NCBI GenBank assembly: GCA_021818475.1
Contig: JAKADZ010000004.1
Location: 1 to 60,310, forward strand
Length of the DNA: 60,310 nt
Direction of reading: 5' to 3'
Source of the DNA: Nanobdellota archaeon
GTDB taxonomy: Archaea; Nanobdellota; Nanobdellia; Pacearchaeales; GW2011-AR1
Part shown: in pieces, positions 30,922 to 57,742 of the stretch
How the letters are laid out: every line of letters begins with the position of its first letter
Numbering within the stretch: the first letter of the stretch is position 1
Translations under genes and position numbers: made by a program
Notes under the pieces: generated by a model
Told to the model about the DNA's origin: nothing
Database searches by the model: none
Seen by the model: the letters and a program-made list of their open reading frames with translations, nothing else

Positions 30922-30979
30922 AAAATTTTGCTCAATAATTCCCGCCCAAGATGGAAATTTTTGTATTTCGCAAAATTTT
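30922..30979. repeat. element A, shortened copy
   Basis: AAAATTTTGC-TCAATAATTCCCGCCCAA...GCAAAATTTT; compensatory terminal IR. Confidence 0.65.
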
Positions 30980-31047
30980 TTATTGAAATTATATTCTGAA
31001 TTAATAAACATAGTAAAATCTTTAAGATAGATTAACTTAAAAAATTT

Positions 31048-31812
31048 ATGAATAAGTCAATTCTTGATGAAATAAGGAAAAAAAGAGAATTCTCCCAACT
31101 TCCCGAAATTGACATAAAAATGGCTTATGAACAATTTGAAAAAAAACAAATAACCGATGATGAAAAAATAAAACTTACAAAAGAGTTATTAAGAAAAATT
31201 TTCAGCGCTTTTGTCAGCAAGAAACTTTTATCCCCAAAAAATAAAGACCCTGAATGGATTCTTAGAAAACATATTTCCACGAAGGAAAGAATGCCATTTT
31301 ACAAAGAAATTTATAAAAGAATTTTCAGGGAAATTAAAAAAGCGAGTGTGATTGACTTAGGTGCAGGAATAAACGGATTTAGCTACAAGTTTTTCAAAGA
31401 GGAAGAACTTGAAATAGATTATACTGCGATTGAATCTGTCGGGCAATTAGTTGAACTTATGAATTTTTATTTTAAAAAAAATAAATTAAATGGAAAATCT
31501 TTTCATCTTAGCTTATTTGAATCCGAAAAAGTGAAAAAAATAATTTTAAAAGAGAAGAAACCAAGAATTATTTTTTTATTTAAGGTTATTGATGCGCTGG
31601 AATCGCTAAAGAGAGATTATTCAAAAGAATTAATTCAAAATCTTTCAAAAATTTCTGATAAAATTGTCGTGAGTTTTCCAACAAAAAGTTTGGGCAGCCG
31701 GCAAAAGTTTAAAGCAAACAGAAACTGGATAAGTGAATTTATTTATGAAAATTTCATAGTCTCTGATGATTTTGAACTTGGTGGTGAAAGATATTTGATT
31801 TTCAACAGGTAG
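31048..31812 (+). CDS. Arm/Rmt/FmrO-like SAM-dependent rRNA methyltransferase
   Basis: HISTKER, IDLGAGING, VVSFPTKSLG motifs. Confidence 0.75.
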   Translation: MNKSILDEIRKKREFSQLPEIDIKMAYEQFEKKQITDDEKIKLTKELLRKIFSAFVSKKLLSPKNKDPEWILRKHISTKERMPFYKEIYKRIFREIKKASVIDLGAGINGFSYKFFKEEELEIDYTAIESVGQLVELMNFYFKKNKLNGKSFHLSLFESEKVKKIILKEKKPRIIFLFKVIDALESLKRDYSKELIQNLSKISDKIVVSFPTKSLGSRQKFKANRNWISEFIYENFIVSDDFELGGERYLIFNR

Positions 31813-31894
31813 GTTTTTAGAAAAAAAGAAACTATAAGGGTAAAAAACTAAGATAATTCTAGGAAAAAAGTTTTATAAATTCCCTCTTCTTTTT

Positions 31895-33103
31895 TTGGTT
31901 ATGGTTAACAAATTCTACCGAAAAATATTATCAAACGGCATGACCGTTTTTTTTGAAAAAAGAGACCTCCCAATAGTCTCTGTTGTATTCGCGGTAAGGA
32001 ATGGGGGGATTAACGAATCTACCAAGGAAAAAGGCATTTCTCATCTTATTGAACACATGCTTTACAAAGGAACCCCAACAAGAAATTCAAGAAAAATTGC
32101 CGAAGAAATAGAAAAAAACGGAGGAGAACTTAATGGATTTACCGATGAGACAATTACCGCTTTTTGGTGCAAAATGCCAAGCGTTCATTTTAATCTTGCC
32201 CTTGATGTTTTAAGCGATATGATAAAAAATCCCCTCTTTGACGAGAAAGAATTAGAAAAAGAAAGGAAAGTAATTTTTGAAGAAATTAAAATGAGAAAAG
32301 ATAATCCTGCAATTTATTGCTTGGATACTATTCAGAAAGAATTATACACCGGGACTCTGGGGGAAAATTTAATCGGGACTTACGAAACGCTTAAGTCCAT
32401 AGACCGAAAAAAACTTTTTGAAAAATTTGAGCAGATATATCAGCCAAACAATATGATTTTTGGAGTTGTTGGAGATGCAAATTTTGAGGAAATTATTAAA
32501 TTTGCAGAAAAAAATTTTGGGAAAAAGAAAGGGGCGGTTCCTAAACAAAAATTCGGAATTAAAAATGAACATAAAACAGAAAAAAGAAACGGAATTGATC
32601 AAGCTAATCTTGTGTTTGCTTATCATGTTCCATTAGCAGGAGATAAAAAAAGTTATGCAGCAGAAGTTTTGGGGACTTTGATTGCAGGGGGAATGTCTTC
32701 AAGGCTGTTTGGAGAAATAAGAGATAAACGAAATTTAGCTTATTCAATCAGAGGAGATTCCAACATCACCAAATTTTTTGCATATAACACAATTTATGTC
32801 GGAACCACGAAAGAAAATGTCGAGCTAATAAAAAAAATAATTTTGAAAGAATTTGATGAAATTTCAAAAGATTTAACTGAAAAAGAACTGAATCAGATAA
32901 AAGAGCAGATTATCGGGAATTATCACATAGGAATGGAAGATTCACAGTCTCAACTTGTTAACCTGCTGATTAATGAAATAGACGGCAATGCACGGGATTT
33001 TTATGATTATGAGAAAAATATCCGCGCTGTAAAACTTGAAGATGTCAAGAAATTAGCAAGGATAAAAAAATACAGCTTTATTGCACTTGTTCCAAATGAT
33101 TAA
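31895..33103 (+). CDS. M16 family zinc peptidase
   Basis: HLIEH (HxxEH), GGMSSRLF.EIR..RNLAY. Confidence 0.93.
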   Translation: MVMVNKFYRKILSNGMTVFFEKRDLPIVSVVFAVRNGGINESTKEKGISHLIEHMLYKGTPTRNSRKIAEEIEKNGGELNGFTDETITAFWCKMPSVHFNLALDVLSDMIKNPLFDEKELEKERKVIFEEIKMRKDNPAIYCLDTIQKELYTGTLGENLIGTYETLKSIDRKKLFEKFEQIYQPNNMIFGVVGDANFEEIIKFAEKNFGKKKGAVPKQKFGIKNEHKTEKRNGIDQANLVFAYHVPLAGDKKSYAAEVLGTLIAGGMSSRLFGEIRDKRNLAYSIRGDSNITKFFAYNTIYVGTTKENVELIKKIILKEFDEISKDLTEKELNQIKEQIIGNYHIGMEDSQSQLVNLLINEIDGNARDFYDYEKNIRAVKLEDVKKLARIKKYSFIALVPND

Positions 33104-33133
33104 AGTTAAAAACTCTTTTTCTTAACAAATTAT

Positions 33134-33934
33134 ATGTTTATCGTCAAGGTTCCAGGAATTAACGGGCTTGGAAAAACAAAAGGATGTGAAAGAGCCGGAA
33201 ATGCTATTTTGGAATCTTTAAAAGAAATTTACAGCAGTGAAGAAGGGAAACCCCTTGATGTTAATTTACTGGATCTTGAAGAAATTCATCTTGATAATTC
33301 AAATCTTGAATTAAGCAATAAACTTATTTACGAAAATTCCCTGGAAATTTTTGAGAGTAAACCGCAAACTATTTTTCTTGGGGGAGATCACTCCATCTCT
33401 TATTCGACAACAAAAGCCTTTCTACACTACTGCAAAATAAAAAAGAAAAAACCTTGTTTAATTATTTTTGATGCTCATCCTGACTGTATGGAACCGATGG
33501 AAGAACCGACTCATGAGGAATGGGTCAGAAAAATAGTTGAAGAAGGATTTCCAAAAGAAAATATTTTAATTGTCGGGGCGAGAAATTCACATAAAGATGA
33601 GATTGCTTTTTTGAAAGAAAATAAAATAAGAACCGTATCCATGAACGCTCTTACTGAAGATTTGAGAGATATGTGCGATACAATTATGGAATTTTCCAAC
33701 GGCAAGGAACTTTATGTTTCAATTGATGCGGATGTTATTGACCCTGCTTTTGCTCCTTCTACCGGATACCCTGAAGCAGGAGGGCTCACAAGCAGACAAT
33801 TTATTTACCTTATTCAGAGAATTAAGAAAATAAAAAATCTCAGAGCAGTAGATCTTGTAGAAATTAATGAGAAAAATGATAAAGACCGGACAACAGTCAA
33901 ATTAGGTGCTAAAATTCTTGCTGAATTAATATGA
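33134..33934 (+). CDS. arginase/agmatinase family ureohydrolase
   Basis: GGDHS, DAHPD, SIDADVIDP, DLVEIN. Confidence 0.92.
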   Translation: MFIVKVPGINGLGKTKGCERAGNAILESLKEIYSSEEGKPLDVNLLDLEEIHLDNSNLELSNKLIYENSLEIFESKPQTIFLGGDHSISYSTTKAFLHYCKIKKKKPCLIIFDAHPDCMEPMEEPTHEEWVRKIVEEGFPKENILIVGARNSHKDEIAFLKENKIRTVSMNALTEDLRDMCDTIMEFSNGKELYVSIDADVIDPAFAPSTGYPEAGGLTSRQFIYLIQRIKKIKNLRAVDLVEINEKNDKDRTTVKLGAKILAELI

Positions 33935-34455
33935 AAAGAACTTTCATCGCAATTGATATCCCTGAAAACATAAAAAAAGAAATTGTCAAGATTCAGAAAC
34001 AAATCCCCTCATTTAATGGAAAATTAACTGAATATGAAAATCTGCATCTTACTTTAAAATTTCTCGGAGAAATTGATGAAAAGGTAATTGAAGAAATCAG
34101 AAAAAAATTGAGAGAATTAAAATTTACGAAATTTAATGTACAAATAGACAAGTTAGGTTTTTTTAGGAAAGAACATGGGGCAATTGTATGGCTTCATCTG
34201 GCAAATTGTGATGAATTGCAAAAAGAAATTGACAAAAAACTTGAAGGATTATTTGAATCTGAAAAAAGATTTATGAGCCATCTGACTATTGCCCGGGTAA
34301 AATCTGTCAATGTTAAAAATAACTTTTTTTCAGAAATTGAAAAAATAAAATTTATTCCCCTGAACTTTGAGGTAAATGAATTCGTCTTAAAAGAATCTAT
34401 TTTGGATCGTAAAGGACCAAGCTATAAAGATATTGAAAGGTATAAATTAGAATAA
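33931..34455 (+). CDS. thpR: RNA 2',3'-cyclic phosphodiesterase (2H family)
   Basis: RTFIAI, HLTLKFLG, HLTIAR. Confidence 0.93.
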   Translation: MKRTFIAIDIPENIKKEIVKIQKQIPSFNGKLTEYENLHLTLKFLGEIDEKVIEEIRKKLRELKFTKFNVQIDKLGFFRKEHGAIVWLHLANCDELQKEIDKKLEGLFESEKRFMSHLTIARVKSVNVKNNFFSEIEKIKFIPLNFEVNEFVLKESILDRKGPSYKDIERYKLE

Positions 34456-34483
34456 TTTTATTTGTGAAAACTTTTTTGTTATC

Positions 34484-34610
34484 GTTCCCGTCCACCCGCC
34501 CAAAGGGGAATTATTTATCACCCCTTTTTTAATTGAATCTTACATTAATTTTTTGCATCTTTCACTCTTTTTAGCGAAGCATCATGACAGAATCTGATGC
34601 ATAACAATTA
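34484..34610. repeat. degenerate A core plus element C in reverse orientation
   Basis: TTCCCGTCCACCCGCCCAAAGGGGAA; reverse complement reads GCATCAGATTCTGTCATGATGCTTCGCTAA...AAAAGGGGTGATAAAT. Confidence 0.65.
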
Positions 34611-34656
34611 AATTTGCGTTAGAAAGAATGTAAGCGAGGCGAAGCCGAGCGATAAT

Positions 34657-35346
34657 TTAATATTCTTCCCCAACAAGTTTGAAAATCTCTGCTTTTTTTC
34701 CAATCTCTTTTTCAAGTTCTTCAATAGGTGCATTAATCACATTTTTTAATGAGCCAAATTTTTCCAAAAGTTTTTTTGCAGTTTTCGGGCCGATGCCAGG
34801 GAATCCTTCAAGAATAAACTGCATTTGCTCTTTTTTGTCCAAACTTTTTTTAGTTACATTTAATGAAGATTCTGTCTGTTTTTTTACTGCAAGAAGATAA
34901 ATAAATTTTGCACTGTCTTCTGCATTTTTTGTGAATATAATAGGAACTTTCCATCTTAATGCAATTGAAAGAAGAAAACCTCTGATGGCATTTGAAGAAA
35001 CTCCCCTCTCTGAATCATCTGAATACAATTCATGCTCTTCGACCCCTTCAATTAAGAGTAATTTATTTTCATACTGCTGAAGTTCCTCAAGCTGTTTTAC
35101 TAACCTTCTGTTTATCATTGAAGAAATAAAATCTGAAACGGTTTTTCTCTCAATTGCAACATTATTTACAATATAATCCCCAACTTTTAATTCTATAAAC
35201 TCAATTTCCAATCCAAGATGAATCAGCTCGGAGGCAACAAAAGAATTTTTTTCACGATAATCAATAATAATTTTTTGAGCCTGAATTTTTTTAGGCTCTT
35301 CTTTTTTTGTTTTGGAAAAAATATCCAATAAGGGTTTTGACTGCAT
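34657..35346 (-). CDS. ERCC4/XPF nuclease with HhH (Hef nuclease half); likely start MQSKP at 35346
   Basis: IDYRE, GDY, ERKT..DF..S, FPGIGPKTA; the longer ORF start (35403) lies inside a repeat element. Confidence 0.9.
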   Translation of the reverse strand: MQSKPLLDIFSKTKKEEPKKIQAQKIIIDYREKNSFVASELIHLGLEIEFIELKVGDYIVNNVAIERKTVSDFISSMINRRLVKQLEELQQYENKLLLIEGVEEHELYSDDSERGVSSNAIRGFLLSIALRWKVPIIFTKNAEDSAKFIYLLAVKKQTESSLNVTKKSLDKKEQMQFILEGFPGIGPKTAKKLLEKFGSLKNVINAPIEELEKEIGKKAEIFKLVGEEY

Positions 35347-35347
35347 T

Positions 35348-37102
35348 TTACAACGTTTCCTGCTTTTCAGTTTTAATTTTTCCTTCTTCATAATTTCGCT
35401 CATTTATTCCCGCCCAACTCGAGCATTCACTCGTTATTCCCCCCCTCCCACCCATAGGGGAAAATTTTTGTCCTCGTGAAAACTCTCTGCTCGAGCCCCC
35501 ACTCGTTGCAGTTGAATTTTTTTCCTGCACTCGTGAAAACTCTCGCCCATCCTCAAGGGAATTTTTTCTATTCGCGAAATCATTTAACATTTCTTCTTTT
35601 ATGTCCTCAATTGTTTTTTGCATTTTCTTTTCTTTTGCATTTGCCACATAATAAAAAGTTTCATCTCTTGTTCCCTTTGTTATTAACATTATCAGTTTTC
35701 CTGAAATCAATCTGGCTGTTCTTCCACTTCTCTGAATTTTTCGTATTGCTGAAGGAACTGATTCATAAAAAATGACCATATTAACCTCCGGTATATCCAG
35801 CCCTTCTTCCCCTATTGAGGTTGCACAGAGAATATTTATTTCTCCGGAAGAAAATTCTTCTATTATTTTTTTTTGTTCTTTTTGGCTCAATCCTGTTTCT
35901 CCCTTCACCCCTGTTTTTTTTGCCTGACCTACAAAAACTTTAGAATTTACTCCTTTGATTTCATTTAATCTTTTAGAGATTATTGATGCAGTATTTCTAA
36001 ACTGAGTGAAAACAATAATTTTTATCTTTTCATTTTTTGAACTTTCTTCTTTTACCAAATTAACCAGCTCTTCTATTTTTGGATGCTCCAATCCTTTTGC
36101 AAGCACTTCATTTGAACGAATATAAACTGAATTAAATTCTGGACGGCCTACTAATTTTATCACCCCTCTGCTTTTTTTGTCAGCGGCCTGTTTAAACAGA
36201 TCTTTCATATATTCATTAAAACTTGAAAGAGTCTGGGTTTCCAGAAGTTCCAATGCATGCTGAATTTTTATTGCACTTGAACAGGCACTTACCGCAAGCA
36301 TATAATTAAAATTTTTTTCTCGGGAGATAATTGCCATCAATTTTTTCTGAATTTCAATCAATCCTCCCTTGGATGAATTCCCCCACATCATCCCCCTTGT
36401 TTTCAATTCCTGAATATAAGAATCAAAAAGTTTTTTCATATTTTCCCTCATAAAATCGAATTCTTCCGGAAGTTCAACAATTCTTTTTTCAAACTTTAAC
36501 TCCTGAATATATTTTTTTACATCATCGCTGTCGCGGGTTTTTAATTCAACTTCTTCTATGGAAAGATTTCGACAGATTTCATTTATTTTTGCTTTATCAC
36601 TTCCAGGGGAAGCAGTAAGCCCCATTATTCTCTGATGTTTCGCATTTGAAGAATAATTTCTTGCAACAAAGTTATAATCATAATTTTTAATACAACGGTG
36701 AGCTTCATCTTCTATAAGAAGACAGACATCTGTCAGGTCATACAATTTTTTTTTCAGATCATTTGCAATGCACTGCGGAGTCGAAAAAATTATGTCGGAG
36801 TTCTGCCAGATTTTTTTCCTGTTTGCTGCATTTATTTCCCCTGTAAATAAACTCATCTCTGCAAATAATTCTGGAAGATGTTCGCTAAAAAATTTTATAT
36901 GCTGTTCAACCAATGGACGCGTTGGCGCAAGAAAAACAACTTTTTCCCCCGGAAATTTTTTCATTCTTTCTATTGCTACCATCAGGGCAATCAAAGTTTT
37001 TCCCAGCCCTGTCGGGAGAACTACTAAACAGTTTTTATCGATACATTTCTCAAAAATTTTTATCTGATATTCTCTTGGAGATATTTCTTTTAAAAAATCC
37101 AT
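35348..37102 (-). CDS. hef: Hef/FANCM-like DEAH helicase
   Basis: PTGLGKT, DEAH, TASPG, EEGLD, QRSGRTAR; repeat-derived insert in the C-terminal tail. Confidence 0.93.
   Translation of the reverse strand: MDFLKEISPREYQIKIFEKCIDKNCLVVLPTGLGKTLIALMVAIERMKKFPGEKVVFLAPTRPLVEQHIKFFSEHLPELFAEMSLFTGEINAANRKKIWQNSDIIFSTPQCIANDLKKKLYDLTDVCLLIEDEAHRCIKNYDYNFVARNYSSNAKHQRIMGLTASPGSDKAKINEICRNLSIEEVELKTRDSDDVKKYIQELKFEKRIVELPEEFDFMRENMKKLFDSYIQELKTRGMMWGNSSKGGLIEIQKKLMAIISREKNFNYMLAVSACSSAIKIQHALELLETQTLSSFNEYMKDLFKQAADKKSRGVIKLVGRPEFNSVYIRSNEVLAKGLEHPKIEELVNLVKEESSKNEKIKIIVFTQFRNTASIISKRLNEIKGVNSKVFVGQAKKTGVKGETGLSQKEQKKIIEEFSSGEINILCATSIGEEGLDIPEVNMVIFYESVPSAIRKIQRSGRTARLISGKLIMLITKGTRDETFYYVANAKEKKMQKTIEDIKEEMLNDFANRKNSLEDGREFSRVQEKNSTATSGGSSREFSRGQKFSPMGGRGGITSECSSWAGINERNYEEGKIKTEKQETL
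35390..35583. repeat. composite structured element (A containing D modules and a G4 core), in frame in hef
   Basis: ATAATTTCGC...GCGAAATCAT terminal IR; two D units; C7TC3AC3 at 35439-35453. Confidence 0.8.
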
Positions 37103-37118
37103 TTTATGATTCCACCCT

Positions 37119-37745
37119 TTAGACTATAAATATTGCAAATAACATTCCTACTAAAACAAGAGATGCCAGGAAGCTCCACATTATCTTGCTTCCAAAAAAG
37201 ATTTTATTCCCGTCTAAATCTGAAATCGGAAGGATGCTGAAAAAAGCATAATACATATTTAGTCTTGCAAATAATTCAAATCCAAGAAAATAACTTACCA
37301 CTGAAAGAATTAAATTGATTATAACTCCTGACGCAGCGATTAATCCTATATGATACTCGGTTACATCTGAAAAAGTATATAATCCAAATCTTTTGGCCGC
37401 CCTATAAGTTTTAGCTTTTACGTCAAATACAAGACTTGCCATCCAGACAAAACTGTTAAAGGGGAATAAAACTATCTTAGAGATTAAAGGCAGAAATGCT
37501 CCGATTAAGAACGGCTTTTTGTTTGAAGAGTATTTTCCTACTTCCCAGAATCTCATTTCAATTTCGGAATCAAGATTATATGCGATGAACTTTTTTGTCA
37601 CCACATTAAAAAAAACCACAAGCGCCATTCCAAGGACTATTGCAAAAATTAAACTCGTTCCCCTGATAATTTCAAAAAAACCTGCAGATACGCTTAATAT
37701 AATAATTGCAAGAACTATTGCAGATATCTCTTTTTTATTCACCAT
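37119..37745 (-). CDS. membrane protein, M50 peptidase-like fold lacking HExxH
   Basis: IAASGVIINL, FFSILPISDLDGNKI. Confidence 0.7.
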   Translation of the reverse strand: MVNKKEISAIVLAIIILSVSAGFFEIIRGTSLIFAIVLGMALVVFFNVVTKKFIAYNLDSEIEMRFWEVGKYSSNKKPFLIGAFLPLISKIVLFPFNSFVWMASLVFDVKAKTYRAAKRFGLYTFSDVTEYHIGLIAASGVIINLILSVVSYFLGFELFARLNMYYAFFSILPISDLDGNKIFFGSKIMWSFLASLVLVGMLFAIFIV

Positions 37746-37875
37746 CTAACTTTGAACACTGTTTTTTTTATAAATATTACTCTACAAGGAAATAATCTTA
37801 ATGGGTTAATCTATCTTTTCATTTTATATTTTTTATCATGGAAAACTATTTAAATAGGACATAAATAATTTCATT

Positions 37876-38151
37876 ATGAGAATAAAAAAGATTAGTGAAG
37901 TTATCGGAAACAAAGTTTATACTGATGGAGGAGACTTTTTTGGAGAGATTGAGGAAGTAAACCTTTCTGACAACCGAATTGACGGCTGGAGAATCAGAGT
38001 CGGAGGGAATGTCATTTCTATGGTAGGGGGGGCAAAAGGAGTCATAATTCCTCACCAATTTGTTAAGGCTGTTGGTGATGTATTCTTAATTAACAAAGCT
38101 GCTTTGCCAAATCCTGACTCTTCTTTGGAAGAGATACCTGAAGACTTATAA
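37876..38151 (+). CDS. PRC-barrel domain protein
   Basis: ISEVIGNKVYTDGGDFFGEIEE...IIPHQFVKAVGDVFLI. Confidence 0.88.
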   Translation: MRIKKISEVIGNKVYTDGGDFFGEIEEVNLSDNRIDGWRIRVGGNVISMVGGAKGVIIPHQFVKAVGDVFLINKAALPNPDSSLEEIPEDL

Positions 38152-38173
38152 ATACTAAAGATTTATTTTTTAT

Positions 38174-38680
38174 ATGGCAGATGTAATCTTTTTACAAAAT
38201 GATTTATTCACTAAATTTTTATTCCCTTTCTTACTAGCATTTTTTATAGTTTTTGCAATTCTTGAACGAACAAAACTTTTCGGAGAAGGAAAAAAACAAC
38301 TTAATGCTTTAACTGCATTTGTGATTGGTCTGATTTTTGTTACTGCAGTTTATCCTGTTCTTGTTGTAAATAATTTAATTTTATTCATGACTGTCGCACT
38401 TGTTGCGATTTTTGTAATTTTGATGATTTGGGGATTTATCATGGGGGATTACACTAAATTTCAGAGCAATAAAATCTTATCATGGATTTTAATTGTTATT
38501 GCAGGAGTTGCTTTTATTGCTGCAGTAATATGGGCAACAGGATGGTATAGTAATTTGGCTAACTTTTTTTCTAACACCGGATTAAGCCAGACTATCGCAA
38601 CGAATGCAGTTTTTGTAATTGTAATCGCAGTTGCACTTGCGTTAGTTCTTAAAGGTGCTAAAGAAGTGAAAAAAGGTTAA
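38174..38680 (+). CDS. membrane protein
   Basis: PFLLAFFIVFAILERTKLFG; paralog of the next gene. Confidence 0.8.
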   Translation: MADVIFLQNDLFTKFLFPFLLAFFIVFAILERTKLFGEGKKQLNALTAFVIGLIFVTAVYPVLVVNNLILFMTVALVAIFVILMIWGFIMGDYTKFQSNKILSWILIVIAGVAFIAAVIWATGWYSNLANFFSNTGLSQTIATNAVFVIVIAVALALVLKGAKEVKKG

Positions 38681-38707
38681 ATAGAAAATTAGAGGGAGAT
38701 ATCTTAT

Positions 38708-38864
38708 CAAAATTTTTTGATTAAAATTTATTTGTTAATGCAAATTAATTGCTCCGCGCCAGACTTCGTCAAGGCGTTTCGCTAAGGAAAAAGTTGTTAA
38801 TGCGCGAAATTTTTTTGACAGGGTTTAACGGGTTTTCTTTGAATATTTTAAAAAGAGGTGATAA
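38708..38864 (+). repeat. element C
   Basis: CTCCGCGCCAGACTTCGTCAAGGCGTT...AAAAGAGGTGATAA, also at 39735. Confidence 0.75.
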
Positions 38865-38902
38865 AAATTTATAATTTAATCCTGAACAAATCTTTACCTT
38901 GC

Positions 38903-38977
38903 AATTTTGTTTTTAATTCCCAACCCTCCCGCCCTCAAACGCCTTCGGCGTTTGCAAACATTTGTAAAAACAAAATT
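38903..38977. repeat. element B (G4 core + hairpin, 13-bp terminal IR)
   Basis: AATTTTGTTTTTA...CCCAACCCTCCCGCCC-T-CAAACGCCTTCGGCGTTTG...TAAAAACAAAATT. Confidence 0.8.
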
Positions 38978-39037
38978 AATCTTTTTAACAGACCGTTTTT
39001 ACGAAACATATTTAAATATTCTCTAATTAATTTACTC

Positions 39038-39607
39038 ATGAGTTTAGGGGTGATTTTTTTGCAGACTGCAAGTGCTTTCCCAAGTGGGGTTATCGGGGAG
39101 ATGCTTAACAAATGGGAACAGGCTGGATTTTTTAGTTATCTTCTTCCATTTCTTTTAATTTTTGCACTTGTGTTTGGAATTATGACTAAACTTGATATTT
39201 TTAAAGATAATAAAATGGTTAACGGAATTATTGCTTTATCCGTTGCTTTTATGTCCCTGCAATTTGATTTCGTTCCTACTTTTTTCTCTCAGATATTTCC
39301 AAGAATTGGTGTTGGCTTGGCAATAATTTTAGGAATTTTAATTATCGTCGGTCTTTTTGCAGATCCACAAAGCAGCGCAGTAAATTATGTCCTTTTGGGA
39401 ATAGGGGTTATAACTGTGGGAGCAATTATAATTCAATCTGCTGGAGCATTGGGGTGGCAGTCAGGACAATGGTGGGAAGATAATTGGCAGATGGTAGTCG
39501 GAGCAGTTTTCTTATTAATTTTAGTTATTGTAATTATTGGAAGCGGCAGCGGAGATAAAAACAAACAACAGACTCCTTCCTTTATTGGTCCTTGGGGACA
39601 GCATTAA
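39038..39607 (+). CDS. membrane protein; likely start ATG 39038
   Basis: LPFLLIFALVFGI; the upstream 60 codons of the listed ORF are elements C/B. Confidence 0.8.
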   Translation: MSLGVIFLQTASAFPSGVIGEMLNKWEQAGFFSYLLPFLLIFALVFGIMTKLDIFKDNKMVNGIIALSVAFMSLQFDFVPTFFSQIFPRIGVGLAIILGILIIVGLFADPQSSAVNYVLLGIGVITVGAIIIQSAGALGWQSGQWWEDNWQMVVGAVFLLILVIVIIGSGSGDKNKQQTPSFIGPWGQH

Positions 39608-39661
39608 TTTTTAATTAATTTTTTAAAATTAAATTATTTTTCTGACTTTAACTTTCACTAT

Positions 39662-39850
39662 TTCCCTCCCCCCCCCCCCCCCCCCGGAAAGAATATTGTA
39701 AAAATTTCTTTCAGAAATTTTTTGATTGATTTTACTCCGCGCCAGACTTCGTCAAGGCGTTCGCTTAAGAAAAATTATTAATTATAAAGAATTTTAACGC
39801 GGGGTTCAATTATTCAAAAATCTTGTTCAACTCAAAAAGAGGTGATAAAT
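39662..39850 (+). repeat. poly-C G4 core plus element C
   Basis: CCCT-C18-GGAAA, AAAAATTTCT-TTC-AGAAATTTTT, C hairpin, AAAAAGAGGTGATAA. Confidence 0.75.
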
Positions 39851-39919
39851 ATTTAAGAATTTATTTTCTTTCTTGGATACTGCTCATAATTTATCCATTT
39901 AGTTGTTTTTTCAGCAAAC

Positions 39920-40699
39920 CTATTTTTTAGAAATATTTCTCAGAGCTGAAAAATCATCCTGTTCTCCGCTTTGAGGATTTTGCGGAATCTGTTTTTTCAT
40001 TTCAGTTTGTTTTTGCGGAGAAATCATTTTTGAAAAAGAATCCTGCATCATGGACATTTCTTTTTTTATGCTATCAAGATTTTGCCCATAACTGCCGACT
40101 TTTTCAAGAATCGCAATCTGCAATTTATCCATTATAGATTCAATCTTTTTTAACCGTTCTGAAACATTGTCGACTTTATTCTGAACAAGAGAACTTGTTT
40201 CTGAATATGAATCAATCTGCTTTTGTATTTTTTTAATTTTCTCAGAAAATAACTGATCTGCAATTTCTATTATCGTATCTGTATCTGCTCCTGCTGACGG
40301 AGCGTATCCCTCCTGAGGATAATATTGTTCCTGCTGCGGCTGCTGCTGATAAGTTTGCTGCTGATAAGCCTGGGGTTGATATTGCTCCTGCTCTGCTGGT
40401 TGTTCCTCATATGTACTTGGCTGATAAGCCTGAGTTTGTGCAGAATATGTTGGGGCAGGTCTTGGAGTATACTGTTCTTCCTGCTCAATTGGTGCGGGGG
40501 TTTCATTTCCTTCCATTATTGAAGGCTGCATCTCTTCCCCCATTTCATTTCCTTCGGAAATTGCTTCTTTAATCTGGGCCTGTTTCATCGCATCATTGAT
40601 CTCACGTGGAGAAACTCCCTGTTCTGTAAGACTGTTAATTATTTCCTCATCAGAAACTCCCTGTCTCCTCATTTTTGTTATTTGATCTAATGTTCCCAT
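39920..40699 (-). CDS. hypothetical protein with Gln/Pro-rich linker and coiled coil
   Basis: 259-aa ORF with low-complexity YQQQ region. Confidence 0.8.
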   Translation of the reverse strand: MGTLDQITKMRRQGVSDEEIINSLTEQGVSPREINDAMKQAQIKEAISEGNEMGEEMQPSIMEGNETPAPIEQEEQYTPRPAPTYSAQTQAYQPSTYEEQPAEQEQYQPQAYQQQTYQQQPQQEQYYPQEGYAPSAGADTDTIIEIADQLFSEKIKKIQKQIDSYSETSSLVQNKVDNVSERLKKIESIMDKLQIAILEKVGSYGQNLDSIKKEMSMMQDSFSKMISPQKQTEMKKQIPQNPQSGEQDDFSALRNISKK

Positions 40700-40707
40700 G
40701 CGACTTA

Positions 40708-40763
40708 CTCGAGCCCCCGCTCATTGCATTTAAAATTTTCTTTGCATTCGCGAAAACTCTCGC
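40708..40763. repeat. element D, single copy
   Basis: CTCGAGCCCCCGCTCATTGCA...TGCATTCGCGAAAACTCTCGC. Confidence 0.75.
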
Positions 40764-40920
40764 CTCCGGTTTCTTGTGCATCAATTTTCCTCTGGGATAC
40801 TTGTTCAAAATTGATTTTCATGCTAAGGCACCTTTTTTATTTTTCATTATAATTTTAATGTTTAAATCTTTTTTAACTTTGTGATTATATTAACTTTGTT
40901 GAAAATCTTCTTATTCTTGC

Positions 40921-40994
40921 AATTTTGTTTTAATTCCCGACCCTCCCGCCCTCGGATGGCTTCGCCGTCCGCAAATATTTGTAAAAACAAAATT
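40921..40994. repeat. element B
   Basis: CCCGACCCTCCCGCCC-T-CGGATGGCTTCGCCGTCCG; stem covaries with the 38936 copy. Confidence 0.8.
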
Positions 40995-41014
40995 AGGTTT
41001 TTCAACAAAGCGGA

Positions 41015-41365: not shown

Positions 41366-41413
41366 TGGAAATTAACGGGAAAGACATTTAAAATTGTTTT
41401 TATTTTTCCTCTC

Positions 41414-41478
41414 ACGGTTTCGCTCATTTATTCCCGCCCACCCGCCCAAACGGAAAGGTTTTCTATTCGCGAAATCGT
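41414..41478. repeat. element A (unfilled)
   Basis: ACGGTTTCGCTCATTTATT-CCCGCCCACCCGCCC-AAACGGAAAGGTTTTCTATTCGCGAAATCGT. Confidence 0.8.
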
Positions 41479-47808: not shown

Positions 47809-47906
47809 GTTTTGACGAACTGGTAAAATATTTAATTTGGATTGTTTTTTTTATTCTGGCATTTACCGGATTATATTTCATGCTTAAAAAAATAGGAATT
47901 ATATAG
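47805..47906 (+). CDS. tiny single-TM pilin-like peptide (33 aa, not in ORF track)
   Basis: MSFDELVKYLIWIVFFILAFTGLYFMLKKIGII; ATGA overlap with the previous gene. Confidence 0.55.
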   Translation: MSFDELVKYLIWIVFFILAFTGLYFMLKKIGII

Positions 47907-47946
47907 CTGTCTTCTTTGGTCTTCCATTTTATACATAATAAAATTT

Positions 47947-48023
47947 GCAAAAATTTCTTAAAGAAATTTTTGGATTGATTGAAATTTTTTAACAAGCAGA
48001 TTCAACTAAAAAAGAGGTGATAA
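47947..48023 (+). repeat. element C, internally deleted
   Basis: AAAAATTTCT-TAA-AGAAATTTTTGGATT...TTCAACTAAAAAAGAGGTGATAA. Confidence 0.65.
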
Positions 48024-48079
48024 TTTTTTTATGGTTATAATAAAGATAATTTTATTAATTACCGAATCGATTTATTTTA

Positions 48080-48952
48080 ATGGATAAAAAAGGTGAGATG
48101 ACCACTGAACAGATAGTTTTGCTGATAATTTTAATTGTGAGTTTTATCGTCATACTTTTTTTTATATTCGGATTAAATCTCGGAAAAACAACTGAATCTG
48201 AAACCTGCCATAATTCTGTTGTTGAGAGAGGTTCCGGGGTTCTGCCGAAAGAATCAATTCCATTAAACTGCAAGACTCAGTATATTTGCATATCAGGAGA
48301 TGGCAGCTGTGAAAGTATGACTTCCCCTCAGGTTGAGACTGCAAAAACCAAAGATGATGTTTACAACATTTTAGCAAATCAAATGGCTGACTGCTGGTGG
48401 ATGTTTGGTGAAGGAAAAGTTAATTATGTCGGAGAGGGTTTTACTTCCAACCTTTACTGTTCAATCTGCTCGCAAATTGCATTTGATAACAGCGTTAATT
48501 TTTTTCCAAATAATCAGATTGATAAAAAAGAGTTTTACAGCTATCTTGCAACGCATAATGCAAGCGGGCAGGATATAAGTTACCTTGAATATTTAACGGG
48601 AATAAAAGATCCTAGTGCAATTTCACAAAGTATTTCTTTCGGACAGATTGATTTAACTAAACAATATTTTGTCGTTACCGGAATGTTCAATCAGATTGGT
48701 GTTTTAACCTGGATTGGCGGAGGGGTTGCAGCAGGAGCAGCAATTGCTTTAGCAGTGGTAACTGCAGGAGCTTCAATACCGGTTACAGTTGCAATAATAG
48801 GAGGAACTGCCTTAGGCGGGACAGCCGGATATTTCATAGGGACAACAATCAAAGGAGAATCCGGTCAAAATTATCTTACCCCGACAATAATCCAAGCAAA
48901 TTCTGATGATTTTAATTCTCTGAAATGTGCATCAATTAAAACTCTCGGTTAA
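48080..48952 (+). CDS. pilin-like protein
   Basis: KKG|EMTTEQIVLLIILIV; Cys-rich (MADCWWMFGEG); Gly/Ala-rich hydrophobic C-terminal segment. Confidence 0.82.
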   Translation: MDKKGEMTTEQIVLLIILIVSFIVILFFIFGLNLGKTTESETCHNSVVERGSGVLPKESIPLNCKTQYICISGDGSCESMTSPQVETAKTKDDVYNILANQMADCWWMFGEGKVNYVGEGFTSNLYCSICSQIAFDNSVNFFPNNQIDKKEFYSYLATHNASGQDISYLEYLTGIKDPSAISQSISFGQIDLTKQYFVVTGMFNQIGVLTWIGGGVAAGAAIALAVVTAGASIPVTVAIIGGTALGGTAGYFIGTTIKGESGQNYLTPTIIQANSDDFNSLKCASIKTLG

Positions 48953-48990
48953 TTGTAAAAATTTATAATTAAGAAAAGATTTATCTTTGT

Positions 48991-49512
48991 ATGAAAAGAG
49001 GAGATAAAGAATTTTGCGAGTTTGCTCAATCATTCCAGCCCAACTCGCGACTTCGCTTGCATAACACTGACCTTAACTCCGCGAAATCGCTCGCCCACCC
49101 AAACGGAAAATTTTTCTATTTGCGAAATCGCAGAGGAACGATTCTTGTTGAGAATGTTATTTTCATTGTTTTGAATCTTCTTTTTCTGGCAATTTTGCTG
49201 CTTTTTATTTACAGGCAGGGAAACGGGGCAGTTGTTCTTGAGCAAAGTTATGCAAAAAATATTGCCTTGCTTATAGATTCCTCAAGACCAGTTATGGAAA
49301 TGAAACTAAACATGGAAGATGCATTTAATCTCGCTGAAAAAAACGGGATTAAACCAGAAGATATTGTTAAAATAAACGGAAATATTATTACGGTAAAATT
49401 AAGCAACAGCGGGGGATATCAATATTCTTTTTTTACAAATTATGACGTAACTGCTTATCCTGATGTTTCTCCGAATAAAAATTATATAATTAAAATAAAC
49501 GGGTACAAATAA
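48991..49512 (+). CDS. pilin-like protein with a 135-bp element in its leader
   Basis: RRG|TILVENVIFIVLNLLFL; insert flanked by AGAGGA at 48997 and 49132. Confidence 0.8.
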   Translation: MKRGDKEFCEFAQSFQPNSRLRLHNTDLNSAKSLAHPNGKFFYLRNRRGTILVENVIFIVLNLLFLAILLLFIYRQGNGAVVLEQSYAKNIALLIDSSRPVMEMKLNMEDAFNLAEKNGIKPEDIVKINGNIITVKLSNSGGYQYSFFTNYDVTAYPDVSPNKNYIIKINGYK

Positions 49513-49513
49513 A

Positions 49514-50062
49514 ATGATGAAAAATAAAATTTTTGATTTTTTTCCCAAAAACAGCAGGGGGGATAAAATTCTTTCAATTTACTGGTTTGCAATTTTATTA
49601 ATTGTTGCAGGAGGAATTTTTGCAATGGTTTATGTTTTTTATGGCGCTCCTTACGATGTAAGGCAGATAGAAGCACGAGAGTTAACAAACCAGATTGCAA
49701 ACTGCATCTCTTATACGGGAAAAATAAATACAAATTTAATTTCCGGTGGAGTTCCATCCTTATCAAGTCAAAATTTTTTAGAGCAATGCCATTTAATTTT
49801 TAATTCAAGCGAGTGGTCTGATGAACAGTTTTACACGGAAGTTTATATTTACAAACTCGATAATCCCGACAATCCGGTTTTGGATATTAAAAAAGGAAAC
49901 AATAATTGGCTGGCAGGCTGTTCGATTCAGGAGAATCAAACACAGGAAAATCTTCCTTTCTGTCTGACAAAAAGTTTCTATTCTGTTGACAATACTGATA
50001 ACCCGTACATAATTAAAATTTTGTCTGTTGTGAGGAAATCTGAAAAAAATGTTAAAATGTAA
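49514..50062 (+). CDS. pilin-like protein
   Basis: SRG|DKILSIYWFAILLIVAGGI. Confidence 0.8.
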   Translation: MMKNKIFDFFPKNSRGDKILSIYWFAILLIVAGGIFAMVYVFYGAPYDVRQIEARELTNQIANCISYTGKINTNLISGGVPSLSSQNFLEQCHLIFNSSEWSDEQFYTEVYIYKLDNPDNPVLDIKKGNNNWLAGCSIQENQTQENLPFCLTKSFYSVDNTDNPYIIKILSVVRKSEKNVKM

Positions 50063-50342
50063 AAATTGCAATTCCTCTAATTTTTTAAAAAATAAAAAAG
50101 CACAAACTGCAGAGACAATGACGTGGATAATTGCAACTTTGGTGATAATCGGAATTTTGATTATATTTGTTTATTTGTCTGTCCTTGTTTCAAAAACAAA
50201 AGTAATCGGAGTCGGAGATGTTCAGGCGGGACTTCAAAAGGAATCTCCTGTTTTGTTGGAAAAAACTTCTTTGGGAAAAATAATCAATGATAAGAATGAA
50301 AATATTATTGAATCTATTTTGAATCAGGGGAATTCAGGATGA
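50049..50342 (+). CDS. pilin-like protein
   Basis: KKA|QTAETMTWIIATLVIIGIL. Confidence 0.78.
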   Translation: MLKCKNCNSSNFLKNKKAQTAETMTWIIATLVIIGILIIFVYLSVLVSKTKVIGVGDVQAGLQKESPVLLEKTSLGKIINDKNENIIESILNQGNSG

Positions 50343-51178
50343 GAAACACTTTTTATTTAACAGGCAATAAGCGCGGAGATATTCCAATAACAATTCTTGT
50401 AATCGGAGTTATACTGGTGTGCGGGGTGGCTTTATTCAGTTTTTTTTTCTCGACAATACAGATGAGAAATAATTTTTCAGGAATAGGGATGGTTGAACAA
50501 TTAGATTCACAAATAGAAGAAAATGCATTTTACGGAACTTCCCCCGGAGTTCTTTCCGGGAATATAAATACTGCAATTAATTTTGCAAAAAATAACCGCG
50601 TTGGCAATCGGATATGCGACTGTGGAAACAGCTGTAATGATTATGCAACTTGGCTTTCTCAAGCTGCCTCTGAAAACGGAATTCCTGATCCAATATTACT
50701 ACTTTCCTTGATGATGCAGGAATCAGACTGCACTTTAAATGCCTTCAGCGGGAGTTCTGTTGGATTAATGCAGATAAATCTTGCCAATTGCGGAAATTAC
50801 GGGCTTCCTTCAAATCAGGATGACTGCAAAAAACAACTTCTGGAAAATCCACAATTAAATATTGAAGTCGGGGCAAAAATACTGAAAGAAAAATATGACG
50901 CTTACAAAAATGGAAAAGTTTTCAATGGCTGCTCTAATCGTGGAATTACCTATACAGAATGGGATGCTGCTTTGCGAGGATATAACGGATGGGGATGCGG
51001 ATATGATTCGAGCGGAAATCCAATTACTTCGCAGGATAGTTATGTTGAAGAGGTAGATCAAAGGTATGATGCATTGAAAAATGTCGGCAGTTATCTTGAA
51101 TCTGACAGGACGGTTGGAATCTTATGGTGGGCAAAAAAAAGTCTTTCATTCTCGGTGGAATATAAAGGCAGTCCATAA
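50339..51178 (+). CDS. pilin-like protein fused to a lytic transglycosylase (SLT/GH23) domain
   Basis: KRG|DIPITILVI; LMMQES, GLMQI, NPQLNIEVGAKIL, ALRGYNG. Confidence 0.85.
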   Translation: MRNTFYLTGNKRGDIPITILVIGVILVCGVALFSFFFSTIQMRNNFSGIGMVEQLDSQIEENAFYGTSPGVLSGNINTAINFAKNNRVGNRICDCGNSCNDYATWLSQAASENGIPDPILLLSLMMQESDCTLNAFSGSSVGLMQINLANCGNYGLPSNQDDCKKQLLENPQLNIEVGAKILKEKYDAYKNGKVFNGCSNRGITYTEWDAALRGYNGWGCGYDSSGNPITSQDSYVEEVDQRYDALKNVGSYLESDRTVGILWWAKKSLSFSVEYKGSP

Positions 51179-56135: not shown

Positions 56136-56175
56136 AAAGTATGAAGCAAGAAAGGTTTTATAAGGCTTACGATTA

Positions 56176-56488
56176 GGTTTCTTTTAACAAAAGCTCACTT
56201 CGTTCACTTTAATTCGTCATAATCAAATTAAAGAAACTATAATGGTAGAAAATGGGGTTCTTTGAAAAAAGAACCTACAGTGGTAGAAACAGGGAAAAGA
56301 AAGATTGAAGTTGTGTTCTTTGAACAGCTGGTTTCTTTTAACAAAAGCTCACTTTCCTCGAGCCTTCACTTGTTGCTGTTAAATTTCTTTCCGGCACTCG
56401 TGAAAACTCTCTGCTCGAGCCTTCACTTGTTGCTGTTAAATTTCTTTCCGGCACTCGTGAAAACTCTCGCGTTCCCTTTAATTCGTCA
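56176..56488. repeat. duplicated 44-bp site, second copy filled by two tandem 57-bp D units
   Basis: Empty 56176-56219; filled 56330-56488; D units start at 56357 and 56414. Confidence 0.85.
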
Positions 56489-56558
56489 GAGCCAAATAAG
56501 ACCTGAAACAAAAATATCCTTTTTTTATGAAAATACTTAAAAACATATCTGAATTTTT

Positions 56559-57512
56559 TTGAAGATGGTGATAGATAATTATATGAGAATAATAGAAAAG
56601 ATTTCTAAAATTTCGGGAATTGATAAAGAGGAAATTGAAAGGAAAATTGAGGCAAAAAGAGCTAAACTCTCCGGGCTTATAAGCAAAGAAGGCGCAGCGC
56701 AGGTTGTTGCTGCAGAACTTGGGATTTCTTTTGATAATGAAAAATTGAAAATTGAGGAACTTCTTCCAGGAATGAGAAAAGTAAATGTGGTAGGAAAAGT
56801 GACAAAAATTTTTCCAACAAGAACATTCAAAACTAAAACAGGGGAAGACGGGAAAGTTGCGAATATGTTCATTGCGGATGAAACTTCAAATATAAAAGTT
56901 GTTTTATGGGACACCAATGCAATTGCCCTTCTTGACACAGGGAAAGTTGCTGAAGGAAGCACTATAGAAATTTTAAACGGGAGCATGAGGGATAATGAGA
57001 TTCATCTCGGGAGTTTTTCAGAGATAAAACCAACAGAACAAATCCTTGGAGAAGTCAAGACAGGAAAGACTTTCAGAGAGAAGCCAATTTCTGAACTTAA
57101 AAATTCTGATAATGCAATTGTACGGGCATTTATTGTTCAGTCCTTTGAACCCAGATTTTTTTATGTCTGCCCTAACTGCAGGAAAAAAGCAAATCAGGAA
57201 GACGGAGGATTTTTCTGTCCTGATCATGGGAAAGTTGCTGCTGAAAAAAGAGCTTTGATGAATATAATAATTGATGACGGAACTGAAACTATAAGAACTG
57301 TCGCTTTCCACGATACTCTTCGTGATCTTGGTTTTGTTAACTTAGAAGATTTTACTGAAATTTCAAAACAAAGAGAAAATATCATGGGAAAAGAAATGAT
57401 TTTTCAGGGGAATGTCAGAAGCAACAAATTATTCAATACTCCCGAATTCATTGTAGAAAAAATTGAAGAGGTTAATCCTGATTTGCTGATTGCACAGCTT
57501 GAAAATAACTGA
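56559..57512 (+). CDS. rpa: replication protein A / OB-fold ssDNA-binding protein with Zn finger
   Basis: IADETSNIKVVLWD, CPNC...CPDH, IIDDGTETIR. Confidence 0.85.
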   Translation: MKMVIDNYMRIIEKISKISGIDKEEIERKIEAKRAKLSGLISKEGAAQVVAAELGISFDNEKLKIEELLPGMRKVNVVGKVTKIFPTRTFKTKTGEDGKVANMFIADETSNIKVVLWDTNAIALLDTGKVAEGSTIEILNGSMRDNEIHLGSFSEIKPTEQILGEVKTGKTFREKPISELKNSDNAIVRAFIVQSFEPRFFYVCPNCRKKANQEDGGFFCPDHGKVAAEKRALMNIIIDDGTETIRTVAFHDTLRDLGFVNLEDFTEISKQRENIMGKEMIFQGNVRSNKLFNTPEFIVEKIEEVNPDLLIAQLENN

Positions 57513-57560
57513 TTTTATTTTAATCTAACTTTAAACTTGCAGAATGATAAATGGGGAAGA

Positions 57561-57742
57561 GAATTTTGTTCCCGCCCTCCCGCCCTCAAACGCCTTCGGC
57601 GTTTGCAAATAGCAAAAATTTCTTTCAGAAATTTTTGGATATGAATTGCTCCACCTCGGACTCTGTCACGATGCTTCGCTAAAAATCTGTTATGGAGAAA
57701 AATTTAACGCAAAGTTCAACAGTTCAGAAAAGAGGTGATAAA
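57561..57742. repeat. fused elements B + C
   Basis: CCCGCCCTCCCGCCC-T-CAAACGCCTTCGGCGTTTG, then AAAAATTTCTTTCAGAAATTTTT...AAAAGAGGTGATAA. Confidence 0.8.

Follow-up and report, generated by a model that had tools for sequence, protein, structure and literature searches.

Small DPANN archaea have streamlined genomes that are thought to be poor in repeated DNA. Here we describe a family of short, hairpin-shaped repeats with a G-rich apex in a stretch of 60,310 nucleotides from a Nanobdellota archaeon (GenBank assembly GCA_021818475.1, contig JAKADZ010000004.1), referred to at its full length as the window, and in the genome to which it belongs. Several known systems offer points of comparison. 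A bias in orientation relative to the replication fork is a hallmark of elements of the IS200/IS605 type (IS, insertion sequence), and single-strand transposition of this type, with the active strand on the lagging-strand template, is the known mechanism that gives such a bias. Repetitive extragenic palindromic elements (REPs) have GTAG as their conserved word. Chi sites and FtsK-orienting polar sequences (KOPS) are leading-strand octamers with an even distribution over the two replichores, RecBCD and FtsK being the proteins that read them, and the G-quadruplex (G4) at pilE of Neisseria is a bacterial, single-copy initiator of pilin gene conversion. The archaeal fork itself carries a eukaryote-like MCM replisome.

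The Rickettsia palindromic elements (RPEs) are small palindromes that lie in spacers and also in frame inside genes, where they are read through (PMC10969869). The archaeal repeats resemble them in having no transposase of their own and in occupying both spacers and, in frame, genes (here those for Bud32-like, Sun-family, MGMT-like and Hef proteins). In-frame read-through is therefore common to both, and we treat the archaeal family as an analogue of RPEs, not as a member. It differs from them in its units of 60-75 nt as against ~100-150 bp, in its archaeal host, in the G-tract at its apex and in its nesting; its orientation with respect to replication is near-absolute, whereas the available portion of PMC10969869 reports no orientation rule for RPEs. 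Relative to palindromic repeats of the REP, RPE and PATE (palindrome-associated transposable element) types, the family is new in its G-tract apex, its Russian-doll nesting, its DPANN host and its near-absolute replication polarity, and no description of it was found in full-text searches of the literature. As far as its available part goes, a survey of archaeal G4 motifs (PMC7565180) treats frequencies only, without regard to the leading strand. A distant parallel is offered by the G4 motifs of human transposable elements, which, according to an abstract, prefer leading-strand templates (PMC12038398).

The window is the whole of contig C7 of a genome of 697,733 bases in nine contigs (G000), and is AT-rich (32.8% G+C). 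Given its archaeal small-subunit (SSU) rRNA, its single orc1/cdc6 gene (window 9955-11166) and its Hef, XPF, RPA and DNA polymerase D proteins, the host of the repeats is a small-genome archaeon of DPANN type (~0.70 Mb). The large subunit of DNA polymerase D is encoded at 13388-16894, 3' of orc1/cdc6, and Pfam matches adjoining the repeats are to a Hef-type helicase, an ERCC4/XPF nuclease, an RPA-like OB-fold protein and a T2SSE-type ATPase. Sequencing runs that contain the window carry the label mine drainage metagenome; there are four of them, all DNA data sets of one study, with no RNA data set among them. For comparison we searched the genomes of 31 relatives, including G003, G007, G008, G012, G013 and G014; the element-rich genomes (G000, G003, G013 and G014) are 86-89% complete. 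The core motif is also present in several copies in public sequences of Candidatus Woesearchaeota / Pacearchaeota archaeon.

A regular-expression search of the window (loops of 1-7) finds four-run tracts of C3 or longer on the + strand at 35439, 38919, 39664, 40936, 41433, 47268 and 57571 and no four-run G-type tract on that strand. This bears out a preliminary description of the same DNA, which had listed these seven tracts and had noted that all are G-rich on the minus strand whatever the direction of the host gene. Counted as G4 motifs in the usual sense (four runs of G3+ on one strand, separated by N1-7), there are seven in the window and 27 in the genome. The description had called all seven canonical, and this holds for every site except 39664, where CCCT followed by C18 makes a homopolymer instead. 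Covariance-model or motif checks confirm as real all the degenerate or split copies it had placed at 4091, 30941, 34486 and 49035, and loop bases do differ between cores and between aligned units while the G-runs stay. Under the strict pattern with 1-nt loops, nine matches occur at five loci, against an expectation of 0.00 (maximum 0) in 100 dinucleotide-preserving shuffles of the window.

Across the genome, 27 four-run cores (loops of 1-3) were found on five of the nine contigs and none on C1, C2, C4 or C9. Every contig shows a single polarity, with G on the + strand of C3 (n=5) and C5 (n=11) and C on the + strand of C6 (n=2), C7 (n=7) and C8 (n=2), for which our own arithmetic gives a chance of (1/2)^22. 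A looser motif (TTCC, 2-9 bases, three G-runs) likewise never falls on both strands of one contig, in any of its 24 matches in G000 or its nine in G013. The cores of G000 span roughly 260 kb of one replichore, among genes of both orientations.

On sequence grounds the G-tract is a G4-capable apex whose folding is putative; GGGCGGGTGGGCGGG scores ~2.3 on a G4Hunter-style count (own arithmetic). Four runs are not universal, being found in only 16 of 24 aligned units while the remainder have 2-3, and the conserved TTCCC offers the last G-run an alternative pairing partner. The proposal that the family is selected for G4 folding is for these reasons not supported. The homopolymer at 39664-39685 (C18, or G18 on the other strand) stands in a family context, and G013 has G16 in an equivalent kind of unit (306426-306441); the G18 tract may be variable in length, and Logan contigs are cut there.

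The unit is a hairpin of 60-75 nt with the G-tract core as its apex. Its arms have the consensus (GAGCGA)TTTCGC-GA...GA-GCGAAA(TCGCGAG), and the apex consists of TTCC-pyrimidines, (GGGN)2-4 and AAT; one simple unit, in the G orientation, reads TTTTGATTTCGC-GA-ATAGAAAAATT-TTCCCCTT-GGGTGGGTGGGCGGG-AAT-GATT-GA-GCGAAATCAAAA. An arm helix was predicted by RNAalifold on an alignment, A1, of 24 simple units (15 from G000 and nine from G013). Two-sided changes are seen in 10 of the 12 arm pairs and 88% of cells are paired, a level that none of 500 shuffles matched and that collapses once the partners are slid by 1-3 columns. The flanking inverted repeats thus covary, as the preliminary description had it, and its view of the repeats as an apparently undescribed structured family is supported. 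Tandem G.A/A.G beside the arm helix is conserved, as is a word TAG/TAC 3' of the 5' arm, which may be compared with the GTAG of REPs. The inner TTCCC/GGGAA helix is invariant in A1 and shows no covariation there; since it never varies, the alignment speaks neither for nor against it. The GA motifs were also considered as K-turns or C/D boxes, readings that were dropped because the sequence lacks both a 3-nt bulge and any C or D box.

Besides the simple units there are type-B units, which carry an additional hairpin with a C-GAA-G loop, whose inner stems differ from copy to copy yet stay complementary (CAAACGCC, GGACGGC, GGACAGC), and which are enclosed in additional copy-specific palindromes. 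A third module is the A/T hairpin AAAAATTTCTGAAAGAAATTTTT. The outer stems of units are copy-specific in general, and no direct repeats flank the units, which sets them apart from classical miniature inverted-repeat transposable elements. Across species the TTCC-Y-(GGGN)n core is kept while the arms diverge.

In composite copies a whole unit is inserted in an older core, always between GGGC and (TT)GGG, and the older core is therefore split; top-level copies have no common flank. Such composites are found at 35393-35581, where there are two inner units, at 49016-49131 and several times on C3, C4, C5 and C8. Other copies lie within genes. A Bud32-like kinase gene contains in-frame copies at different sites in the two genomes, a core in G000 and a full unit in G013; in-frame cores or units are also present in a Sun-family methyltransferase gene and one further open reading frame (ORF); and in the MGMT-like ORF 3916-4284 a degenerate core stands immediately before the PCHR motif. 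The Hef ORF reads ~75 codons through the entire composite at 35393-35581, and the ATG of XPF lies in or directly after the 3' arm of the same composite.

The orientation of the copies is set by the direction of the chromosome or of replication, and not by neighbouring genes. Around 37 copies (27 in G000, 10 in G013), 41 of 73 flanking genes, taken from crude longest-ORF calls, are co-oriented with the G strand, and 10 of the 37 copies are antisense to both neighbours. These figures bear directly on the idea that the repeats are structured RNA, in which the transcribed G-rich strand, as a hairpin with or without an RNA G4, would act as leader, terminator, stabiliser or protein-binding motif. 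Such a role would fit the covarying helix, the tandem G.A, the U-A to U.G changes (GAGCGAAA vs GAGCGGGG opposite TTTCGC) and the sense units just 5' of start codons (40705-40770, 41409-41483, the XPF start and ~122.9 kb in G013). It fits poorly with the antisense copies, with the near-even co-orientation, with copies that lie within coding sequence and with a polarity that follows the chromosome even where genes are inverted. Moreover, Rfam 15 gives zero matches at gathering score over the whole window, and the best matches by E-value, over 34300-41600, are at chance level. We regard the RNA account as quite improbable.

To relate polarity to replication an origin has to be placed, and it lies very probably at window ~9.6-9.9 kb. 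There, two inverted origin recognition boxes (ORBs) surround a very AT-rich stretch directly upstream of orc1/cdc6 (region 9412-9955). Each consists of a TTTCCAnnGGAA-like dyad and a G-string, the G-strings being GGGGAGGGAGGG and GGGGGTGG. Both G000 and G013 have exactly two ORB-like boxes, inverted and in the orc1 spacer, and none elsewhere. In G013, whose contig C3 comprises 623,136 bases, the spacer upstream of the only orc1 is 974 bases long with 80% A+T, which makes it the most AT-rich long spacer of that contig. The raw GC skew is dominated by the coding strand and is usable only once the two effects, of coding strand and of chromosome strand, have been told apart at third codon positions; the cumulative skew so corrected has its extremes at 98.5-101 kb, the orc1 site, and at 408-444 kb of G013:C3. 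The two ORB boxes, the AT-rich spacer beside the only orc1 and the corrected skew extreme are together the basis for this placement. In the corrected third-position skews of G013:C3, G goes with A on one strand and C with T on the other, where G with T would be usual, and corrected GC3 and TA3 are not both in line with the convention for leading strands.

Cores were then mapped by synteny to the frame of G013, in which contigs C7, C3, C5 and C8 tile the right arc and C6 falls on the other. All 25 right-arc cores of G000 have G on '-', and the two on C6, in the left replichore, have it on '+'; the degenerate cores of C6 are all on that contig's '-' strand. The 12 copies of G013 are all on '-' as well, at 133-306 kb. 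From the relatives 25 cores were fetched and 23 mapped. Outside a rearranged segment, 16 of the 17 right-arc cores of G003, G014 and G008 are on '-', and the sole left-arc core among the relatives, in G012, is on '+'. With the origin placed at the ORB site, the G-rich strand would be the leading-strand template in 27 of the 27 four-run cores of G000, the C strand being on the lagging-strand template; the orientation bias that marks IS200/IS605-type elements is thus seen here without exception among these cores.

Between G000 and G013 there is a 44-kb inversion (G000:C5 38.9-91.9 kb vs G013:C3 212-256 kb), with both breakpoints inside C5. The three cores of G000 and the two of G013 in the inverted segment occupy non-orthologous sites and follow the direction of their own chromosome. 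In G003 and G014, where this segment is seen on short contigs only, the three copies of the former resemble those of G000 and the two of the latter those of G013. These copies speak to a historical account of the orientation, by which units spread through local duplication or gene conversion within one chromosomal domain and were never inverted. That account can point to the copies of G013, which lie in one arc (133-306 kb) and on one strand, so that no flip is visible there, to the thin evidence from the left replichore, and to the copy at 4091-4119, which is left of the origin and not flipped. It is at odds with the copies of the inverted segment, with the flipped copies of the other replichore on C6 and in G012 (three of three four-run cores) and with the spread of copies over ~260 kb among genes of both orientations, and we consider it very improbable.

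A covariance model built from A1, R1, was run on G000 and the 31 relatives. It matched 35 times in G000, 22 in G003, 12 in G013 and three times each in G014 and G007; one or two weak matches were obtained in four more relatives and none in 22 of the 31. At E <= 1e-4 the family is present in four of the genus's 17 genomes. The window and G013:C3 90.5-139 kb are colinear, with ~70% amino-acid identity, and this stretch of G013 contains a single unit, at 133.5 kb. The spacer between Hef and XPF measures 48 nt in G013, with no element, as against the 189-nt composite in G000, and in five orthologous spacers compared among G000, G003 and G013 there are different units at different positions, or none. 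Unit identity is 0.74 and 0.76 within genomes vs 0.69 between them, and the genome-diagnostic columns include two compensatory pair switches. Because positions differ in orthologous spacers and the consensus is genome-specific, we conclude that the family proliferates, its units having multiplied separately in a few species of one genus. The preliminary description had suggested a mobile element or a polar replication signal, and both suggestions point the right way, in that the family behaves as proliferating and its polarity tracks chromosome direction. Logan contigs laid over 30900-50899 break at the repeats and give no usable sign of excision or empty alleles; the sides of the contig joints there are 20-39 letters long, nearly all <30, and are best explained by other repeat copies.

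Taken together, we give about an even chance to the reading that these are a lineage-specific family of small nested palindromic repeats in a DPANN-type archaeon, with an orientation set by replication. An orientation fixed in this way implies that the element would pass through a single-stranded, hairpin-folded stage at the replication fork. Insertion could be strand-specific, as in the peel-and-paste transposition of IS200/IS605, or only one orientation might survive; the G-tract may equally be the preferred landing site for new units. A route that needs no dedicated enzyme can also be envisaged, in which a structured single strand at the fork would pair with the C-tract of a core already in place and then be built in much as an Okazaki fragment is. 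Such pairing would account for the strand rule as well as for the insertion of units between G-runs.

Elements of the IS200/IS605 and PATE kinds are similar in having hairpin-forming ends and no classical terminal repeats, and no target duplication is seen here. They differ in that no Y1 TnpA was found in the element-rich genomes and no TnpB in G000, the only genome searched for TnpB, in that no fixed 4-5-nt target word could be defined for our units, and in that a single long hairpin spans the unit in place of separate left- and right-end hairpins. With no such enzyme found, we claim only that the family works like IS200/IS605. REPs, with their bacterial interspersed mosaic elements (BIMEs) and REPINs, are also short, mostly extragenic imperfect palindromes present in many copies with compensatory pairing. 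Here, however, neither a REP-associated tyrosine transposase (RAYT) nor Y1_Tnp is found in G000, G003, G013 or G014, some copies are intragenic, the apex is a G-tract, and the strict single orientation never gives inverted doublets. That enzymes of this kind exist in the group is indicated by one Pacearchaeales genome, for which the accessible part of 10.64898/2026.05.13.725050 describes a REP-associated tyrosine transposase.

A number of observations weigh against a replication-oriented, proliferating family. The preliminary description had proposed a search for a trans-acting HUH/TnpA/reverse-transcriptase gene, and none was found: G000 has no match to PF01797 (Y1_Tnp), PF00078 (RVT_1) or PF01548 (IS110 DEDD), and the TnpB zinc ribbon (PF07282) appears there only below threshold (best 20.1 bits vs a cut-off of 26.3). 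Y1_Tnp is present in four of the 31 relatives (G007, G009, G023 and G026) and in none of G000, G003, G013 and G014, and the flanks of the relatives' Y1_Tnp genes are free of family motifs. As the genomes are 86-89% complete, absence of a transposase is not proven. No target-site duplication or fixed target word could be defined at the top-level copies of the compared spacers. The spacer at ~306 kb (G013 frame) is occupied in G013, G014 and G008, from which it appears that some copies have been retained. The polarity also has its exceptions: a four-run core at the edge of a local inversion (G003:C7:15890), the degenerate core at 4091-4119, left of the origin and not flipped, and one weak model match on the 'wrong' strand of C2. 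The flip between replichores is carried by three four-run cores and a few degenerate cores of C6, and the 25 copies vs two between replichores are unexplained by fork mechanics alone. As for the origin, ~70% of left-arc genes (on '+') and the rRNA gene point towards the ORB site and would, given an origin there, be head-on to replication. These gene orientations and the sign of the GC3 skew would fit an origin at the opposite extreme, in which case the G strand would be the lagging-strand template. Finally, the strand that folds is not discriminated, given that G.U-type cells in the arms hardly exceed A.C-type ones (17 vs 13, own count) and that both strands fold equally well as DNA (z -2.3 to -3.5).

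The near-complete polarity and its re-establishment in the inverted segment might instead reflect a polar chromosome signal selected by the host, in which G-tract-capped hairpins carried by the leading-strand template influence the replisome or the handling of the chromosome. The hairpins could pause or pace MCM, which tracks that strand, mark direction as Chi and KOPS do, or bind Orc1 through an ORB-like G-string. Compensatory change that maintains arm pairing, a TTCC-Y-(GGGN)n core conserved across species while the arms diverge, and the ~306 kb spacer occupied in three species all agree with such a signal, as do the same kind of G-strings in the origin ORB boxes. Yet 13 of the genus's 17 genomes gave no match to the family at E <= 1e-4, its positions are mostly non-orthologous between species, copies are divided 25 vs 2 between replichores, G-run number varies from two to at least four, and the in-frame insertions beside an active-site loop look accidental. 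Comparison with the individual signals gives a similar picture. Like Chi, KOPS and the architecture imparting sequences (AIMS), the repeats are G-rich with an orientation tied to replication direction; they differ in being structured repeats of 60-190 nt with G on the strand opposite to that of Chi/KOPS, uneven in number between the replichores and not found in most congeners searched. They also resemble the ORBs, in which a similar G-string stands 3' of a short dyad, but the dyad of the units is TTCGCGAA, lies ~19 nt from the G-tract and has the opposite direction relative to the origin; the ORB combination of dyad and G-string is absent from the units and occurs twice per genome, in the orc1 spacer only. 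A host-selected signal seems to us unlikely on balance.

A stronger form of that thought, which we find distinctly unlikely, is that the G-capped hairpins are a direction-reading component of the chromosome, installed and re-installed so that MCM threads the G4-capable strand. The C strand, which in this host from mine drainage is i-motif-capable, would then be on the exposed lagging-strand template, and the units would be polar signals for pacing or pausing, priming or repair direction. In archaea they could correspond to Chi, KOPS or Ter, with DNA structure in place of a word read by a protein, and they may share an evolutionary origin with the G-string of the ORB boxes.

The preliminary description had placed the repeats around a pilus locus and likened them to the pilE G4. 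One unit, 41409-41483, does lie in a divergent spacer beside a T2SSE-type ATPase gene (41532-43811), and, as at pilE, a pilus-related gene has a G3N1-type motif nearby on one strand. However, the concentration does not hold up, since the 27 cores are found on five of nine contigs and over ~260 kb of one replichore, beside DNA-repair, kinase, methyltransferase and other genes. The host is archaeal, and a multi-copy family spread over hundreds of kilobases of its chromosome beside unrelated genes has no pilus specificity. Nor were silent pilin cassettes seen, though no search aimed at them was made. We take a pilus-linked recombination initiator to be effectively refuted.

If the replication-oriented family is as we describe it, one subclade of these archaea has dozens of structured repeats, nested and in frame in genes, under a replication-direction rule that is almost exceptionless. 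Their polarity would be a rare trace, readable in the sequence, of a step at the archaeal fork in which DNA is single-stranded, and a repeat that spreads with no recognisable transposase would be of interest in itself. The family would also serve as a natural system for the tolerance of G4s and hairpins on the leading- vs lagging-strand template, and as a marker of replication direction and past inversions in uncultured archaea. Should a function as polar signals be confirmed for the units, no earlier archaeal example is known from the literature searched.

Table 1. Repeat copies and origin of the window, with strand of the G-rich sequence and covariance-model E-value where available
Position	Strand	Feature	E-value	Remarks
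4091-4119	-	Degenerate core (TTCCCTGCTGCTC-GGGGGCGGGCGGGAGG)		In frame in MGMT-like ORF 3916-4284; 5.5 kb left of origin
9584-9950	.	Context: origin, two inverted ORB boxes		Boxes 9584-9611 (reverse complement) and 9924-9950; upstream of orc1/cdc6
30917-30984	-	Simple hairpin unit, two G-runs only (GGGCGGG) at apex	1e-10	A1 member
34473-34529	-	Core-only degenerate copy (TTCCCCTTT-GGGCGGGTGGACGGG-AAC) after GGGGTGATAA box	2.4e-3	
35393-35581	-	Composite 'Russian-doll' element, 189 nt	2.4e-15 (inner unit 35418-35487)	Between Hef helicase and XPF nuclease genes; outer unit with 5' arm 35565-35579, 3' arm 35393-35401 and split core GGATGGGC ... TTGGGCGGG; inner units 35490-35544 (no G core) and 35418-35487 (G4 motif 35439-35453)
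38901-38979	-	Type-B unit, arms AATTTTGTTTTTAC / AAAAACAAAATT		G4 motif 38919-38934; inner hairpin CAAACGCC-GAA-GGCGTTTG at 38936-38954
39644-39722	-	AT hairpin AAAAATTTCTGAAAGAAATTTTT (39700-39722), then G18AGGG (39664-39685), homopolymer core variant	8.7e-3	
40705-40770	-	Hairpin unit without G core (GGCGAGAGTTTTCGCGAATGC...GCAATGAGCGGGGGCTCGAG)		ATG of gene 39920-40699 is 8 nt downstream; near-identical copy at G000:C4:14477, upstream of a gene
40894-41010	-	Type-B unit within two more palindrome layers (CTTTGTTGAAAA / TTTTCAACAAAG)		G4 motif 40936-40951; inner hairpin GGACGGC-GAA-GCCATCC; DNA fold z -3.0 / -3.3 (two strands)
41409-41483	-	Simple unit	1.8e-15	G4 motif 41433-41447; upstream of gene 41015-41365 (-)
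47244-47318	-	Simple unit, 12-bp copy-specific outer stem (TTTTGATTTCGC / GCGAAATCAAAA)	4.2e-16	G4 motif 47268-47282; DNA fold z -2.3 / -3.5
49016-49131	-	Composite unit, core split GGGTGGGC-[GAGCGATTTCGCGG...GTCGCGAG]-TTGGGCTGG	1.8e-6	Orthologous spacer 21 nt in G013, with no unit; unoccupied in G003
57562-57638	-	AT hairpin 57614-57636, GAA hairpin CAAACGCC-GAA-GGCGTTTG 57587-57605, G4 motif 57571-57585		

Some observations on the surroundings of the repeats may be added. The Hef helicase and the XPF/ERCC4 nuclease are encoded by separate adjacent genes (window 34657-37102), and in many euryarchaea the two are fused. A promoter/TATA reading at the start of XPF was rejected on spacing. The MGMT-like gene lies between serine-recombinase ORFs, a fragment at 3438-3881 and one with Resolvase and Recombinase domains at 4260-5030, so that 3438-5030 has the look of a small cassette bounded by recombinase genes, at ~5 kb from the origin. 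A block of ~10 kb at ~16995-26969 has no syntenic counterpart in G013. Its genes are for a G6PD-like protein, a winged helix-turn-helix protein, thioredoxin reductase and thioredoxin, together with a PrkA / DUF444 / SpoVR / PrkA operon, a cargo that is unexpected as a whole in so small a genome; no mobility gene was found within this island, and a tRNA search of the window found none.

Overlapping the hairpin unit upstream of gene 39920-40699 is an ORF of 37 codons (40822-40709, - strand; MKINFEQV...GGESFRECKENFKCNERGLE). As the arms covary, a reading of this ORF as a peptide like those that are ribosomally synthesized and post-translationally modified was dropped in favour of a nucleic-acid hairpin; the ORF is probably a by-product of the hairpin, though it could be a leader peptide. 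Lastly, the highly conserved 15-mer AAAAAGAGGTGATAA, which is Shine-Dalgarno-like, occurs on the + strand of the window at 38854, 39838, 48013 and 57731 and at ~30 sites over all contigs of G000. It is found on both strands, with no start codon at the usual distance, its complement ends in T5, and in several copies of the repeat it stands 8-12 nt 5' of the G-core; it could be a terminator or processing box.

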